Part shown: positions 50,323 to 64,000 of the stretch, piece by piece
Layout of the letters: each line of letters begins with the position of its first letter
How positions within the stretch are numbered: position 1 is the stretch's first letter
NCBI GenBank assembly: GCA_022710975.1
Contig: JAKLGA010000009.1
Location: 45,083 to 109,082 of the forward strand
DNA length: 64,000 bases
Direction: 5' to 3'
Origin: Myxococcota bacterium
Lineage (GTDB): Bacteria; Myxococcota; B64-G9
The notes under the pieces: model-generated
Databases searched by the model: none
What the model was told of the DNA's origin: nothing
Seen by the model: the letters and a program-made list of their open reading frames with translations, nothing else
Position numbers and translations under genes: made by a program

Positions 50323-51201
50323 ATGGTGATTCGCCACCTTTGGATGGGGCTCGTGCTGGGGCTCGGCCTCCTGGGCATGGGTTGCACGGAGGGTCAGGTT
50401 GGCTCTGGCGACAGCGGGTCGAGCAAGTCGAGCGTAGACGCCGGTGGCCCTCTTGCCAGTAGACACCCGCACCGAGACCTTGAACATGGAGATCTGCATC
50501 TGCAGATTCTTCATGCCTACAATGACGAATTCTCCGACCTGAAGCCATGGATTGGAACTCTGGATCAAGCCCTGGTGGCTGATCCCAACAACCGTGACCT
50601 GCAGCGGATCCGAAAGGCAGTCTGCGCTGAAGCCGATGAAAGAGCCATCCGTGACCAGTGCCTGGTCGAGTTCGATCTCGAACACTGGCAGGCTGCCTGC
50701 GATTGCTTCAAGAGGCTCTCCTGCACTCACAGAACGCCCAATGTCGGAGCCGAGGTCGCACTGTGTGTCCATCGCCAAGCCGAGCCTCTGAACTCCGGTG
50801 AGCTTGGCCTGGCACAGAGGTCCATCGAGCGGATGTACCCCGAGCCGGCGCTTTCAGCCGCGGTGAAGGGATACAGCGAGGGCAAGGTGCGGACATCGCT
50901 GCGGGAGCTGAATACCTTCATGCAGAGAACGACGGACGAAGCTCTGAGACAGAAGGCCATCACGCTTGGGATCCACATGCGCATAGTGAAGGGCTACTAC
51001 GACTCGGACCCGCTCGAATTGATATTCGGTGGTGAAGGTGCAAGCTGCTCGAGGATGGGGTGGTGCCCTTGCTTGAGGTTTGAAGCCCTCCAGGCGCTTG
51101 ATGCTGATGCGATGATCATGCCGTGGTGGGTCACATCCTTTTTCCATGAGGATATCGACAACAGGCTTCGAGAGTGCAGAGAGCGATGCGGGGGACGTTG
51201 A
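50323..51201 (+). CDS. hypothetical lipoprotein, paralog A (lower-GC islet)
   Basis: 292 aa. Lipobox LGLLGMGC. Shares the N-terminus MVIRH(L/V)WMGLVLGLG and a WQAA(C/Y)DCF(K/R)(R/K)L motif with the adjacent paralog. Local GC clearly below the window average. Confidence 0.6.
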   Translation: MVIRHLWMGLVLGLGLLGMGCTEGQVGSGDSGSSKSSVDAGGPLASRHPHRDLEHGDLHLQILHAYNDEFSDLKPWIGTLDQALVADPNNRDLQRIRKAVCAEADERAIRDQCLVEFDLEHWQAACDCFKRLSCTHRTPNVGAEVALCVHRQAEPLNSGELGLAQRSIERMYPEPALSAAVKGYSEGKVRTSLRELNTFMQRTTDEALRQKAITLGIHMRIVKGYYDSDPLELIFGGEGASCSRMGWCPCLRFEALQALDADAMIMPWWVTSFFHEDIDNRLRECRERCGGR

Positions 51202-51321
51202 AGCGCCCTCCGTCTGTCGAAGAAGGCGATCGCCCGTTTCTGTGGAAATCTGGGAGCCACTAATGGGTTACCCCAGTCCTGACCCCGGTCCGAATTCCTA
51301 TTGGGGTGAGGGACCTGGCGC

Positions 51322-51330
51322 TTGGTACAA
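51322..51330 (+). promoter_or_regulatory. extended -10 TGGTACAAT, 7 nt upstream of ATG (predicted leaderless transcript)
   Basis: TGGTACAAT GGGGCC ATG. About 100 bp around it is roughly 85% identical to the region at 50284-50390. Confidence 0.4.
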
Positions 51331-51337
51331 TGGGGCC

Positions 51338-52012
51338 ATGGTGATCCGCCACGTGTGGATGGGGCTGGTGCTGGGCCTGGGTGTCCTCGGCCTGAGCTGT
51401 AGTGACCCGGACCGGGGCCCGCTCGGTAGCGAGGTGAGTCCAGTGGCCGCGGACTCTGGTGAGCTACCAGGCAGGGGAGACTCTGACGCGCACATGGTCC
51501 TGCACCGCTATGCCTGGGATCTTGTCGGCAGCTCCACGGACCTCGAGGTCTCGGCGGTGGAGGAAGCTGTCAGGGAAGGTTGCCTTCACATTGGCGCCAG
51601 GTGCAATCTGCCGTTTTTTAGCGATTGTAGAGCCCGCAACTGCGCCGAAGAATCTGATTTCGTATTCTATGTCGCCTGCCTGGGCCTGTTCGCGAATGAT
51701 CGATGGCAGGCGGCCTACGATTGTTTCAGGAAGCTGCCCGCGGAGGGCTGTTTCGCGAGGATCGCCAAGGACAAGATCGCCCGGTGCGTCGAGCAGCTCA
51801 CCAAGTTCCACCGCGCCGAGAGCCTGGCCTACGAGCAGGCGGGGCGGCTCTGGAAGGCTCTGGAGCACGAGTTGACCCTGTTCGAGCTCCACCCCTGCGA
51901 CCCGGAGATCTACGCACGGCTGCGCGGCCTGGAGCAGAGGGTCGAGGTGCCCGCGGGGCGCGAACGGCCGCGCATCGCCTGGGACCAGGCCGCCTGCGGC
52001 AACCCGCCCTGA
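51338..52012 (+). CDS. hypothetical lipoprotein, paralog B (lower-GC islet)
   Basis: 224 aa from MVIRHVWMGLVLGLGVLGLSC. Only the 3' part of track ORF 51146..52012 is used. Shares N-terminus and central motif with paralog A. Confidence 0.6.
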   Translation: MVIRHVWMGLVLGLGVLGLSCSDPDRGPLGSEVSPVAADSGELPGRGDSDAHMVLHRYAWDLVGSSTDLEVSAVEEAVREGCLHIGARCNLPFFSDCRARNCAEESDFVFYVACLGLFANDRWQAAYDCFRKLPAEGCFARIAKDKIARCVEQLTKFHRAESLAYEQAGRLWKALEHELTLFELHPCDPEIYARLRGLEQRVEVPAGRERPRIAWDQAACGNPP

Positions 52013-58777: not shown

Positions 58778-60013
58778 ATGTTCAGCTGCGAGGGCTGTGG
58801 GCAGGACATCCCCGAGCAGGCCGTCCATTGCCCCTACTGCGGGGCGCAGTGCGGCGACGGCCCCGCCGATCCGTCCAGCATCTTCACCCAGCCTCGCAAG
58901 GGCCTGCTGTGCCCGGGCTGTGGCCAGCGCACGCTCCAGGAGGGCGACTACTGCATGTGGTGCGGCTTCCGCCTGGACTCGCTGGCCGAGACCACCGACG
59001 GCGGGGGCACCCCTGCGCTGGACCAGGTCACCGAGGTGCAGGGCCGGGTGCTCGACGGCACCCACAAGGCCCGCCCCGCGGGCGGCGGCAACACCAAGGC
59101 CGTGCTGGTGGCCGTCATCCTGGGGCTGTCCATCGCTCTGGTGGTGGTCCTGCTGATGCTGCTCGCCGCCCAGCGCAGCCTGGCGAGCCTGACCGCGCAG
59201 GCCTCGGCCCAGGCCGAGGCCCAGGACGATCTCGGGCCGGCGGAGGCGCGCTACCTGGAGGCGATGGACTATACCGAGCAGGGCCGCTGGGAGGACGCCG
59301 CGGTCATGCTGCGGGCGGCGCTGCTGGCCGACCCGCGCCACGCGGCCGCCCGCGCCAAGCTGGAGGAGGTCGAGCTCCAGGCCCAGGTGGCGGGCAACGC
59401 GCGCCTGGCGAAGGACGATCTGGAGGCCAAGGACTTCGACGGCGCCCTGCAGGCGGTGAACAGGCTCCCGCCCGACGCGCTGGAGAAGGATCCCGAGCTG
59501 CTCAAGCTGCGCGCCCGGGTGCGCGACGAGTACCGCAAACACCACCTGAGCGAGGCCAGCCTGGCGGAGCAGGGCGCCGACCTCCAGTCGGCCGAGGCGC
59601 ACCTGCTGTCCGTGCTGGCGGTCGAGCCGGACGACGCCATGGTCAAGGCGAAGGTGGACGAGCTGCGCGAGAAGCTGACCAAGGCGAAGCGCCAGGCCCC
59701 GGCCAAGGCCTCCGCCGCCGATCTGGCCGAGCTCGCGCCGGATCTCAGCGCCGAGCAGCTCGTGCGGAAGGCCAACGAGGCCTGCCAGCAGGGCCGCCAC
59801 ACGCTGGCCGTCGAGAGCCTGCAGCGGGCCCGCAAGCTCGAGCCCGACGAGCCCGAGTACGTGCGGTTGCTCGCCAACGTGTACGCCCTGCAGGGCAACC
59901 GCGCCGAGGCCTTCCGGCTGTACAAGCGCTACCTGGAGCTGTGCCCGAACTGCGTGTACACGCAGACCGTGCGCAGCACCATCCGCGGCTTCGAGGATCT
60001 CGGTCAGCCGTGA
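58778..60013 (+). CDS. zinc-ribbon domain plus TPR-like membrane-anchored protein
   Basis: Two CxxC...CxxC pairs (CEGCG...CPYCG, CPGCG...CMWCG). One TM helix (AVLVAVILGLSIALVVVLLMLLAA). C-terminal helical TPR-like repeats. The overlapping ORF 58828..60069 is Arg/Gly/Pro-rich and rejected. Confidence 0.65.
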   Translation: MFSCEGCGQDIPEQAVHCPYCGAQCGDGPADPSSIFTQPRKGLLCPGCGQRTLQEGDYCMWCGFRLDSLAETTDGGGTPALDQVTEVQGRVLDGTHKARPAGGGNTKAVLVAVILGLSIALVVVLLMLLAAQRSLASLTAQASAQAEAQDDLGPAEARYLEAMDYTEQGRWEDAAVMLRAALLADPRHAAARAKLEEVELQAQVAGNARLAKDDLEAKDFDGALQAVNRLPPDALEKDPELLKLRARVRDEYRKHHLSEASLAEQGADLQSAEAHLLSVLAVEPDDAMVKAKVDELREKLTKAKRQAPAKASAADLAELAPDLSAEQLVRKANEACQQGRHTLAVESLQRARKLEPDEPEYVRLLANVYALQGNRAEAFRLYKRYLELCPNCVYTQTVRSTIRGFEDLGQP

Positions 60014-60062: not shown

Positions 60063-63000
60063 TCAATAGCGCTGGAACCGGACCGTGTAGCTCTGGCAGA
60101 GGTTGTTCTGGCCGGTGGCCGGCTTCACGCACACGTAGAAGGTGTTGGAGTTGCCGGTCTGGCAGCTGAAACCGCCGCCCGGCAGGGAGTAGCAGGTGGT
60201 CTGGAAGGGCGGCACGCTGTCGACGCACTCCTGGGTCGAGCAGTTCCCTCGCCACACGTTGAGCCTCAGGTTGCCCGGATCCGGGCTGAAGGTGACCTGC
60301 AGGGTGCCGGCGCCCGGGCTCGGCTGGTTGTAGGCCAGCACATAGCAGTCGTTGTCCTCGCGCAGCCCGGTCTTGTAGACCAGCACCCCCGGCCGGTCGA
60401 CGATCATGCTGCCCGGACCGATGGTGCCCACGTTGTAGGGGCTGTTGGCGCAGGTGTCGCCCACGTCGCTGGTGTCGATGCACTCGCAGCCGTTCGGGTT
60501 CAGCCCGTCGACGTTCCAGGTACCGGCGTTGCAGGACTGCACCACGCAGGCGCTCGACACGCAGGCCTCGGTGGCGTTGGGGAGGTTGCAGACGTTGCCG
60601 CAGAAGCCGCAGTGGTTCACGCTGACGGTGACGTCGGTCTCGCACCCGTTGACCGGGTTGCTGTCGCACGAGTCCCAGCCGGTGTCACAGGATGGGCTGC
60701 ACACGCTGCCGAAGCAGGTCGTGGTGCCGTGGGGGTTGCTGCAGACGGTGGCGCAGCTCCCGCAGTGGCCCACGTCGTTGGTGGTGTTGATCTCGCAGCC
60801 GTTGGCCCGGTTCGAGTCGCAGGTGTCGAACCCCGGGCTGCAGCTGGCGAAGTCGCAGGAGCCCGCGTTGCAGTAGGTGCCCGTCGCGTTCACCACCTGG
60901 GTGGTGCAGTTGATCCGACCGGCGCAGGTGGTGCCGCAGGCGCTGACCGCGTTGAGGTCGGCCTCGCAGCCGTTCGGCCGGCTGCCGTCGCAGTCGCCGT
61001 AGCCGCCGACGCAGGCGCCGTAGTCGCACACGCCCCCCAGGCACGTCTGGCCGGTCGCGTGCTGGGTGGTCGCGTTGCAGTTCACCCGGCTGGCGCAGGT
61101 CCCGCCGCAGCCGTCGACCAGCCAGATGTTGGTCTCGCAGCCGTTGGCGGCGTTGCCGTCGCAGTCCCCCCAGCCGTTGAGGCACGCGGTGTAGCCGCAG
61201 GTGCCGTTGCCGCAGGTGATGCCCGAGGCGTGCAGCACCGTGAGGTTGCAGTTGACCCGGGCGCCGCAGCTCGGGCCGCAGGAGGCCACCTGCCAGATGT
61301 TGGTCTCGCAGCCGTTGGCCTCGTTCGCGTCGCAGTCGCCGAAGCTCGGGTTGCAGGTGGTGTAGTCGCAGGCGCCGCCGTTGCAGGACTTGCCGCTGGC
61401 GTTCTGCACCTCGCTGTTGCAGTCCACCCGGTTCAGGCAGGTCGTGCCGCAGGAGTTGGTCTGCCAGATGTTCAGCTCGCAGCCGTTGGCGCGGTTCGAG
61501 TCGCAGTTGCCGAAGCCTCCGTCGCAGGTGGTGTAGTCGCAGGCGCCGCTGGCGCAGGTCTCACCCGAGGCGTTCAGCACCTGGGTGGTGCAGTTGACCC
61601 GGTTCAGGCAGGTGGTGCCGCAGGAGCTGGTCTGCCAGATGTTCAGCTCGCAGCCGTTGGCGCGGTTCGCGTCGCAGCTGTCGTACCCGGGGTCGCACAG
61701 GCCGAAGTCGCACACGCCGCTCGCGCAGGTCTCGCCCGAGGCGTGCTGCACCTGGAGGGTGCAGTCGACCCGGCCCGCGCAGGCCAGCCCGCAGGCGCCG
61801 GGCAGCCACAGGTCGGTCTCGCAGCCGTTGGTGGGGTCGCCGTCGCAGTCGCCCCAGCCCGGGCTGCAGCTGGTGTAGCCGCAGGCGCCGCCGGTGCAGG
61901 TGAGCCCGGTGGCGTGTTGCACCTGGGTGCCGCAGTTGACGCGGGTGGCGCAGGTCGAGCCGCAGGAGGCCACCTGCCAGATGTTCACCTCGCAGCCGTT
62001 GGTGCGGTTCGCGTCGCAGTCGCCGAAGCCTGCGTTGCAGGTGGTGTAGTTGCAGGCGCCGCTGGCGCAGCTCTTGCCGGTGGCGTTCTGCACCTCGCTG
62101 TTGCAGTCCAGGCGGCTCCCGCAGGTGGTGCCGCAGGAGTTGGTCTGCCAGATGTTGGCCTCGCAGCCGTTGGTGCGGTTCGAGTCGCAGCTGTCGAAGC
62201 CCGGGTCGCAGGCGCTGAAGTCGCACAGGCCGCTGGCGCAGCTCTCGCCCGAGGCGTTCAGCACCTGGGTGCTGCAGTTGACCCGGGTCGCGCAGCTCGG
62301 ACCGCAGGAGGTGAGCTGCCAGATGCTGGCCTCGCAGCCGTTGGTGCGATCTGCGTCGCAGTCGCCGAAGCTCGCGTCGCAGGTGGTGTAGTTGCAGGCG
62401 CCGGACGAGCAGCTCTCGCCCGAGGCGTTCAGCACCTGGGTGTTGCAGTTGACCCGGTTGCCGCAGGCGGTCCCGCAGGCCGCGGTCTGCCACAGGTTGG
62501 CCTCGCAGCCGTTGGTGCGGTTGCCCTCGCAGTCGCCGAAGCCGGTGTTGCAGGACAGGTACTCGCACAGGCCGCTGGCGCAGGAGGGGCCGACCGCGTT
62601 CAGCACCTGGGTGCTGCAGTTGACCCGGCCGGCGCAGGTCAGGCCGCAGGAGGTGGTCTGCCAGATGTTGGCCTCGCAGCCGTTCGGCCGGCTCGCGTCG
62701 CAGTCGCCGAAGCCCGAGTCGCAGCTAGGGCTGCACAGGCCGACGAGGCACTCGTTCGTGCCGTGCACGGCCAGGCAGGTGGTGGCGCAGTCGCCGCAGT
62801 GGGTCTCGTCCGAGGCCGTGTTGGTCTCGCAGCCCGGGCTGGGGGTGCAGTCGCCCCAGTCCGGGTTGCAGCTCAGCACCTGGCAGCTGCCCGAGGCGCA
62901 GGTCGCGGTGGCGTTGGGCAGGCTGCAGCCGGTGTTGCAGGCGGCGCAGTGCACCATGGTGTTGAGCTGCTGCTCGCAGCCGTTGGAGCGATCGTTGTCG

Positions 63001-64000
63001 CAGCTGCCGAAGCCCGAGACGCACTGGTTGAAGTCGCACGCGCCGCTGGCGCAGGCGGTGCCGGTGGCGTGCAGCACCTGGGTGGTGCAGTCGACCCGGC
63101 CCGCGCAGGTCAGGCCGCAGGAGGTGGTCTGCCAGATGTTGGCCTCGCAGCCGGTGGGGACGAGCCCGTCGCAGTTGCCCCAGCCCTGCTCGCACCCGTC
63201 CAGCGCGCAGCCCGCGGGTGCGCAGTGCTCGCTGGCGTGGTCGAGCGCGCAGATCACGCCACAGCCGCCGCAGTTCGCCTCGTCGCCGGTGAGATCCACG
63301 CAGCTCTGGCCGCAGCAGGCCAGCGGCAGCTGGCAGTCGAGCGCGCCGCCGCCGCAGCGGCACAGGCCGTTGAGGCAGCCCTCGTTCGGGTCGCACAGCG
63401 TGTCGCAGTCGCCGCAGTGCTGCTCCTCGGTCAGGGGATCGAAGCAGCTCGCGCCGCAGCAGATCTCCTGCGCGCTGCAGTCGGCGCCGGTGCCGCCGCA
63501 GGCGCAGCCGCCGTCCTCGCAGCTCTCGCCCGCCTGGCAGGCGGTGGCGCAGTCGCCGCAGTGCTCCTCGTCGCTGAGCGGATCGATGCAGTCGATGCCG
63601 CAGCACAGCTGCAGCGCGTTGCAGTCCGGGCCGACGCCGCCGCACAGGCACAGGCCGTCCGTGCAGGACTCGGCCGGATCGGAGCAGGGCAGCCCGCAGC
63701 CGCCGCAGTTCGCCTCGTCGATGTCGGTGTTGGTCTCGCAGCCGTTGGGCTCCAGGCCGTCGCAGTCGATGAAGGGCGGGGCGCACTCGCCCGGAGTGCA
63801 CACCCCCGCCACGCACAGGGCCGGCGCGTTGGGGAAGGTGCACACGTTCCCGCAGCCGTTGCAGTTCTCGGGGTCCGCCTCGAGGTTCCGCTCGCAGCCG
63901 TTGACGTCCTGGCCATCGCAGTCGTCCCAGGGCGCCTCGCACTGGAGCACCCGGCAGGCGCTGGCGACGCACTCGGCGCTGGCGTGGAACAGGCTGCAGA
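60063..64000 (-). CDS. giant secreted Cys-rich repeat protein (5' end outside window)
   Basis: More than 1310 codons. Frame stays open from the track start (63950) to the window edge. At least 13 tandem copies of a 56-aa, 8-Cys module (NGCExNIWQTxSCGxTCxxRVxCxTQVxNAxGxxCxxGxCxYxxCxxGFGDCDxNR). N-terminal 48-aa Cys/Gly modules. Non-repetitive beta-rich C-terminal domain of about 225 aa. Confidence 0.8.
60740..63190 (-). repeat. in-frame tandem coding repeats, period 168 bp (56 codons), at least 13 copies
   Basis: For example GGTCTGCCAGATGTTCAGCTCGCAGCCGTTGGCGCGGTTCG recurs at 61461 and 61629 (plus strand), 168 bp apart. Copies are divergent, not identical. Confidence 0.8.
63236..63668 (-). 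repeat. second repeat class in the same gene: about 48-codon Cys/Gly-rich modules, 3 copies
   Basis: [88 protein letters not shown] and [44 protein letters not shown]. Coordinates approximate. Confidence 0.5.

Follow-up and report, generated by a model that had tools for sequence, protein, structure and literature searches.

We found that a giant minus-strand gene at the end of a 64,000-nucleotide stretch of DNA (NCBI GenBank assembly GCA_022710975.1, contig JAKLGA010000009.1, positions 45,083 to 109,082 of the forward strand; this whole stretch is called the window) is a genuine gene of an uncultured Myxococcota bacterium and encodes a 2,117-amino acid (aa) protein with a core of tandem eight-cysteine modules. 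We put the probability at roughly 55% that this protein is a lipoprotein, anchored by its N-terminus, that carries a distal binding domain on a disulfide-stabilised stalk above an Ig-like base, and that it serves as an adhesin or receptor. The protein would be exported and lipid-anchored at its N-terminus, each eight-cysteine module would be locked by four disulfides, with one probably bridging to the next module, and the modules together would form a stiff rod. The rod would present the C-terminal binding domain tens of nanometres off the cell surface, in the role of an adhesin or receptor. A sequence-only reading of the window, made by a model, had described a giant Cys-rich secreted protein and a candidate adhesin. 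The full open reading frame (ORF) does begin with a signal peptide, and an adhesin-like role is the interpretation that we judge most plausible.

The gene is uninterrupted and its product is already deposited. In the window, the minus-strand frame spans 60063-63998, with 1,311 sense codons and a stop codon at 60063-60065, and is open to the window end, in agreement with the earlier description of a gene of more than 1310 codons that runs off the window. The G+C content at third codon positions (GC3) of this frame was 0.98, as expected of a coding frame in a window of 72% GC. The window protein has 188 Cys, or 14.3% of its residues, compared to 2.7% or less for every other ORF in the window. 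We obtained the full gene by an exact-sequence look-up of the neighbouring tetratricopeptide repeat (TPR) gene, which led to matching Joint Genome Institute (JGI) metagenome contigs (L001). The contig used was identical to the window (0 mismatches in 15,223 nt) and holds 806 more codons, giving a complete ORF of 2,117 codons of which the window covers the 3' two-thirds. Recovery of the full gene from flanking sequence had been proposed as a check on the prediction, and the frame continued without a stop across 6.35 kb. The same protein was present on five contigs, its cluster consists of one sequence, and it is in NCBI as HOX45505.1 and HRY95865.1 under the name 'choice-of-anchor D domain-containing protein [Myxococcota bacterium]'.

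The core of the protein is an array of 57-aa modules, here called type B. Tandem Repeats Finder (TRF) reported a period of 171 with 11.3 copies and 73% matches, and an NGCE motif recurs every 57 residues from residue 439 to residue 1065 of the window protein. There are 12 copies: eleven in tandem (60804-62684, minus strand, 171 bp each) and a twelfth that stands alone (62985-63155, minus strand). All 12 copies have Cys at module positions 3, 13, 17, 23, 35, 40, 45 and 52, for a strict spacing of C-9-CG-2-C-5-C-11-C-4-C-4-C-6-C. Gly, Glu, Arg and Ala positions are invariant as well, and other positions vary. Copies compared in pairs were 40-79% identical as protein and 62-86% as DNA. Traces of a super-repeat that spans four modules are visible, for example in the modules at residues 610 and 838, which share 78-79% identity in protein and 86% in DNA. 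The longest exact direct repeat, of 42 bp (61457-61498 and 61628-61669), lies at two successive module junctions. The earlier reading was right about a core of tandem eight-Cys modules with invariant spacing, but its period of 56 aa (168 bp) is one residue short, and its count of at least 13 tandem copies exceeds the 11 tandem copies and one isolated copy found here. Its consensus was correct apart from the missing final residue, and the span that it gave for the array, 60740-63190, holds not just the array but also neighbouring modules (among them two of 51 aa) that belong to another, related subtype of 51-52 aa.

It is highly improbable that the repeat number or the frame is a product of short-read assembly, or that the gene is a decaying pseudogene. 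Two independent Logan short-read contigs (L003 and L004) both end at 61486, within the first copy of the 42-bp repeat, and the two full-length JGI contigs, being identical, may not be independent assemblies. These points are outweighed by the intact 6.35-kb frame with its GC3 of 0.98, by the recovery of the same protein on five contigs and under two NCBI accessions, and by orthologs of 2,077-2,498 aa that keep the domain order. Because the copies are only 62-86% identical in DNA, they are unlikely to have collapsed anywhere but at the 42-bp junction. We conclude that the contig break at 61486 is an assembly effect and not evidence of polymorphism. Short-read assemblies of the gene fragment at the 42-bp repeat, and repeat counts taken from them need long-read confirmation.

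Two further properties of the type-B copies were considered and set aside. The ratio of nonsynonymous to synonymous substitution between modules (dN/dS) was ~1.1-1.2, and was discarded as uninformative because a GC3 of 0.98 constrains synonymous sites compositionally. Many modules have an N-x-[ST] motif, either NAS or NAT at module positions 29-31 (6 of 12 copies) or NRT at positions 54-56 at several junctions. We rejected N-A-[ST] as a defining glycosylation sequon. This motif is more likely to be a structural turn than a conserved sequon, because five of the 12 modules carry His in place of Asn at position 29.

The type-B module had no match in the domain databases. A single module gave no Pfam or NCBIfam match at E≤10, consistent with the earlier statement that it could not be assigned to a named family, and a profile of the 12 copies found nothing significant among PDB sequences (no E below 0.3). 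A check for EGF-, TNFR- and furin-like domains yielded no Pfam match and no PDB sequence match at E<0.3; in fold searches, matches to the C-terminal domain predominated.

Comparison of module profiles indicates that type B is a lineage-specific insertion variant derived from a shorter module, type A (the 'DCDxxxxNGCE' module). Type A is a 51-52-aa, eight-Cys module with the pattern NGCE-x9-10-CGxCxxxC-x8-C-xxGxC-x3-4-C-xxG[FWY]x[DN]CD, and a profile-profile comparison of B with A reported homology at 98% probability (E 1.2e-13). The two types have in common the eight Cys, the NGCE and G[FWY]GDCD ends, and their position in orthologous proteins. They differ in that CGxxC-x5-C in type B replaces CGxC-x3-C, the loop before the fifth Cys is three residues longer in type B, and type B alone has the conserved residues W8, R20, V27 and A30.

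Type A is widespread in Myxococcota and type B is rare. We used the module profile in an exhaustive hidden Markov model (HMM) search of 1.84 billion representative proteins, which returned 292 proteins at E≤1e-3, 96 at E≤1e-10 and 31 at E≤1e-30, most of them with the shorter type-A spacing. Strict type-B spacing occurred in 26 of the 317 proteins that were fetched, 14 of which have it three or more times. Among genomes (one per GTDB species), relatives were found at at least 492 loci, nearly all in Myxococcota metagenome-assembled genomes, plus Chondromyces apiculatus DSM 436, and type-B spacing was present in two of the 80 best genome loci. Modules resembling type B were also present in other proteins, whose N- and C-terminal domains differ. 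Type A is not curated in Pfam or NCBIfam, and its modules matched NF041328 only weakly (21.5 bits).

These results bear on what is new about the module. The novelty implied by the earlier reading has to be tempered, since the 57-aa module is derived from one of 51-52 aa that occurs widely among Myxococcota. Known before are the protein itself, which was deposited and partly annotated, the Cys-rich repeat stalks of myxobacterial surface proteins, and the eight-Cys module, which is widespread though uncurated. New here is that the 57-aa variant is a subtype of its own, seldom seen, which takes the place of the 51-aa module within a small clade. The lack of a Pfam or NCBIfam model for an eight-Cys repeat present at hundreds of Myxococcota loci, and for its 57-aa variant, is a gap in the domain databases, and the 2,117-aa protein is therefore named after its N-terminal third only. 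A more far-reaching interpretation, which we consider unlikely, is that the 57-aa module is a domain family not curated so far, limited to one small clade of lipoproteins from uncultured Myxococcota, with a function of its own beyond spacing. The insertions (NIWQ...CGxxCxxRVxC, with an invariant Trp and Arg) would then form, for example, a repeated ligand-, glycan- or metal-binding site, and the array would be a multivalent binder and not a passive stalk.

The N-terminal third of the protein, upstream of the window, includes Ig-like domains. In order, the full-length protein has a signal peptide, two small Cys knots, five choice-of-anchor D Ig-like domains, two MopE-motif modules, and then the part in the window, which comprises three Stig1-like modules, ~17 eight-Cys modules (12 type B and 5 type A) and a C-terminal domain of 143 aa that is a predicted beta-sandwich; the whole protein has ~24 Cys-rich modules. 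The choice-of-anchor D model NF012200 scored 214.1 bits (cutoff 45) in five stretches within residues 1-807, outside the window (contig L001), and ASH/HYDIN-type Pfam matches fell in the same Ig-like region. The five domains are what the protein shares with choice-of-anchor D proteins and are the source of its NCBI name. However, the name fits only residues ~100-670, and most choice-of-anchor D proteins that we found are without any Cys-rich array. The two MopE-motif modules, of 79 aa each, have the motif CDxxDNDCD and matched PF11617 at 25.3 bits, below the cutoff of 27.

The signal peptide suggests export and may also mean attachment to a membrane by a lipid. The N-terminus, MLRSSWLTCCLALLVSALAMSC-SDN, has a positive N-region, a hydrophobic core and a lipobox-like Cys. 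The N-termini of orthologs are of the lipobox type (ALGGC, WGMGC and AVCAC), and five unrelated module-carrying proteins, all that were inspected, begin with canonical lipobox signal peptides (LAGC, HPGC, FTGC, FSAC and FVAC). The lipoboxes of the orthologs and of the unrelated module proteins argue for membrane anchoring. We found no sign of a C-terminal anchor: the C-terminus (...RFQRY) has no hydrophobic helix of the kind found in MYXO-CTERM (TIGR03901), which combines a Cys-containing motif with a transmembrane helix and an Arg-rich tail; there was no NCBIfam match in the C-terminal 139 aa, and the NCBIfam scans gave neither a MYXO-CTERM nor a PEP-CTERM match.

The absence of a C-terminal sorting tag and the non-canonical form of the lipobox in this protein could also be taken to mean that the protein is released as a matrix or S-layer-like protein, which would be shed or would assemble itself into fibres or sheets and whose C-terminal domain would have no specific ligand-binding role. 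We regard this as rather unlikely. The canonical lipoboxes of orthologs and of unrelated module-carrying proteins speak against release. The gene occurs once, without signs of the very high expression or the self-assembly domains typical of S-layers, and a beta-sandwich that is well conserved and strictly terminal points to a specific function of the tip.

The C-terminal domain is predicted to be a beta-sandwich of the collagen-binding/pre-peptidase C-terminal (PPC)/C-CPE type. The domain (60066-60494, minus strand; window-protein residues 1169-1311, full-protein residues 1975-2117) is non-repetitive, is conserved across orthologs, and recurs in distant form as the last domain of several other repeat proteins. 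Sequence searches returned no NCBIfam match and no PDB sequence match at E≤10, and the C-terminal domains of five orthologous proteins had no Pfam match below E = 0.1 and none to PPC (PF04151). We ran AlphaFold2 on residues 952-1311 of the window protein with a 49-row alignment that mixed ortholog C-termini with module pairs. The mean predicted local distance difference test score (pLDDT) was 74.7, with 80-90 in the C-terminal domain and ~80-86 in the module cores. (A run on three type-B modules with a 9-row alignment had a pLDDT of 49, was unusable, and was replaced by this one.) Foldseek matched the model to the C-terminal domain of Clostridium perfringens enterotoxin, to PPC domains and to CUB domains, with E from 5e-5 to 1e-3. 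The model agrees with the earlier description of a non-repetitive, beta-rich C-terminal domain, and the likeness of the domain in this protein family to collagen-binding/PPC domains, as predicted by the model, is new here. The collagen-binding/PPC fold mostly serves macromolecule binding, and we presume that the C-terminal domain is a distal binding domain.

The best Foldseek matches in the PDB were to the claudin-binding C-terminal domain of C. perfringens enterotoxin (C-CPE; E 5e-5), and many Myxococcota are predators. The protein might on these grounds be the receptor-binding arm of a predation or toxin system, with the C-CPE-like domain binding a molecule on the surface of prey cells. We consider this very unlikely: Pfam and NCBIfam scans covering all 2,117 aa found no domain of a toxin, a pore-former or an enzyme, there are no immunity-like or secretion-system genes nearby, and the match to C-CPE does not single out a toxin because C-CPE, collagen-binding and PPC domains have one fold.

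The pattern of Cys gain and loss is consistent with disulfides that link successive modules. We compared GCE sites with and without a preceding eighth Cys in the proteins fetched here. An extra Cys (GCEC or GCEYxC) was present at 47 of 115 sites that lacked the preceding eighth Cys, compared to 20 of 1,621 sites that had it (Fisher p = 3e-44, a value that ignores relatedness). The loss of the eighth Cys is thus matched by the gain of a Cys nearby, which fits a bond between C8 of one module and C1 of the next. Alternatively, the extra Cys may just mark transitions between domain types.

A different use of the cysteines would be the binding or sequestration of metal by a matrix protein, with Zn, Fe, Cu or Ni coordinated by the thiolates of ~210 Cys; such a function would suit a sulfidic, anoxic habitat. 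The Cys content of 14.3%, the CGxxC and CGxC motifs in every module, the weak matches to the MopE 'putative metal-binding motif' just upstream of the window, and a habitat that may be anoxic are compatible with this function. Nonetheless, we think it improbable. Each module has an even number of Cys with rigid spacing on a Gly/aromatic scaffold, as is typical of structural disulfide modules, and there are almost no conserved His, Asp or Glu ligands in the modules. Pairwise bonding fits the offset of eighth-Cys loss by nearby Cys gain better than metal clusters do, and the MopE match is below cutoff and outside the 57-aa array.

The proposed stalk with a binding tip has a precedent in the outer-membrane-exchange receptor of Myxococcus xanthus, TraA (MXAN_6895). 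The Cys-rich tandem repeats of TraA have been proposed to be oxidised and to form a rigid stalk that presents a PA14 binding domain, with a MYXO-CTERM anchor (PMC3325183). Both proteins combine Cys-rich tandem repeats with a binding domain and a membrane anchor, the latter two presumed in our case, and by analogy the protein described here would resemble TraA functionally with its polarity reversed. In TraA the PA14 domain is N-terminal and the MYXO-CTERM anchor C-terminal, whereas in the protein described here the lipobox lies at the N-terminus and the collagen-binding/PPC-like domain at the C-terminus. In addition, TraA lacks the length of this protein and its five choice-of-anchor D domains, and the TraA repeat (TIGR04201) had no match in NCBIfam scans of the window protein (E≤1) or of single modules (E≤10). 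If the stalk-plus-tip interpretation is correct, the protein represents a second architecture by which myxobacterial surfaces display a binding domain, with a polarity opposite to that of TraA. The finding opens no long-standing question.

Several observations weigh against an anchored stalk with a binding tip. The lipobox of the protein itself, A-M-S-C, is non-canonical with respect to the pattern [LVI][ASTVI][GAS]C, and the pLDDT was just 50-62 in the first third of each type-B module. The similarity of the C-terminal domain to the clostridial collagenase collagen-binding domain, PPC and C-CPE is at the level of fold only, with 8-14% identity and ~8 extra Cys in the domain described here; the collagen-binding/PPC fold is also found in non-binding roles, for example in protease pro-domains. 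The source metagenomes may be anoxic, judged by gene content around the orthologs, which makes extracellular disulfides less self-evident. Lastly, there are no conserved partner genes that indicate function. The TPR neighbour, an acyltransferase and a GH31 glycosidase also flank one ortholog (P0089, on contig L005) and not another (P0090, on L006), and no partner gene can be inferred because synteny holds with P0089 only.

Orthologs differ in the number and the type of their modules. We found four full-length orthologs (2,077-2,498 aa, 43-55% identity) that have the same domain order and C-terminal domain. These were found with the full-length query; a word-indexed search with the C-terminal domain alone missed even the parent protein, and domain-sized queries gave short proteins only. 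Three proteins have a type-B central array: the protein described here has 12 copies, P0089 also has 12 but with interruptions, and P0090 has 15. The other two orthologs have a type-A central array, of ~19 copies in P0091 and ~25 in P0092. Modules have no one-to-one positional orthology, and within P0089 and within P0090 they are more alike among themselves than they are like copies in other proteins. Based on these properties, we conclude that the arrays are remodelled by duplication and loss in each lineage, through which array length and module subtype would drift between lineages. The natural swap of 51-aa and 57-aa modules among orthologs shows the tolerance of the array. It had been suggested that the copy number might vary between strains. 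Within this exact lineage we saw no variation, as all full-length recoveries (five contigs) were identical, and copy number and subtype varied only among the orthologs with 43-55% identity.

The 48-aa modules that precede the core match Stig1. TRF placed a repeat of period 144 with 2.3 copies at 63333-63660, as expected from the earlier description of 48-aa Cys/Gly-rich modules, and the whole Stig1-like/MXAN_6577-like Cys-rich region, delimited with TRF, Pfam and NCBIfam, covers 63156-63746 (minus strand) with three modules of the pattern C.CGG.G.DC......CCG..C.D.....HCG.C...C. Stig1 (PF04885) was the only Pfam match in the window protein, with 38.8 bits (cutoff 24.1) and its best stretch at residues 119-165, in the 48-aa modules. 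The NCBIfam scan at E≤1 gave only the MXAN_6577-like model NF041328, with 83.6 bits over residues 89-214, under its cutoff of 100. These modules had been likened to the Myxococcus cysteine-rich repeat class, but that repeat (TIGR02232/DUF4215) was absent from the NCBIfam scan, assuming that the model is in release 20, and the matches were to Stig1 and, below cutoff, to NF041328 instead. Stig1, NF041328 and CPL1-like (PF21671) proteins are small, stand-alone Cys-rich proteins, in contrast to the 2,000-aa array described here. A literature search on MXAN_6577 and 'choice-of-anchor D' found nothing relevant.

A eukaryotic protein has repeats similar to type A. This secreted protein of 371 aa from a EukProt transcriptome (P0024) has type-A-like 'NGCE...CGxC...DCD' repeats and matched CPL1-like (PF21671) at 40.4 bits. 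The similarity hints that the myxobacterial module and the fungal and protist CPL1 and Stig1 families could be related or exchanged.

The remaining features of the gene in the window, all on the minus strand, are the tail of the second MopE-motif module and five type-A modules. The tail is at 63903-64000, from where the gene runs on for 806 codons past the window. A 52-aa type-A module follows at 63747-63902, before the Stig1-like region. Two type-A modules (62685-62984, window-protein residues 339-438) part the isolated type-B module from the tandem array, and a 51-aa type-A module lies on the other side of the array at 60651-60803. The last type-A module, of 52 aa (60495-60650), is without the eighth Cys, with WNVDG in place of GDCD, and is followed by NGCEC.

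The stop codon of the giant gene (60063-60065, minus strand) is tail to tail with the TPR gene (58778-60013, plus strand), which is 49 bp away and whose 411-aa product has TPR repeats at its C-terminus and, at its N-terminus, a double zinc ribbon (DZR) that scored below cutoff. A scan of the 49-bp convergent spacer found no terminator-like site, and Rfam and tRNA scans of the window gave no match. Two ORFs on the plus strand inside the giant gene (62392-63999, 536 aa, and 60439-60876, 146 aa; GC3 0.98) are shadow frames of the high-GC coding region and not separate genes. Elsewhere in the window, at ~50340-52010 (L001:1567-3235), the GC content falls to 0.625, compared to 72% for the window, and two ORFs (285 and 172 aa) there have no Pfam match; this stretch may be acquired DNA. 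Upstream of the giant gene and divergent from it, outside the window (L001:17885-19936 and L005:3517-7571), are a small ORF with no Pfam match (183 aa in L001, 215 aa in L005) and a gene for a sigma-54-dependent response regulator, and the L005 region additionally has a Cache/HAMP histidine kinase. This divergent arrangement, shared by the locus described here and that of P0089, is a possible regulatory link.

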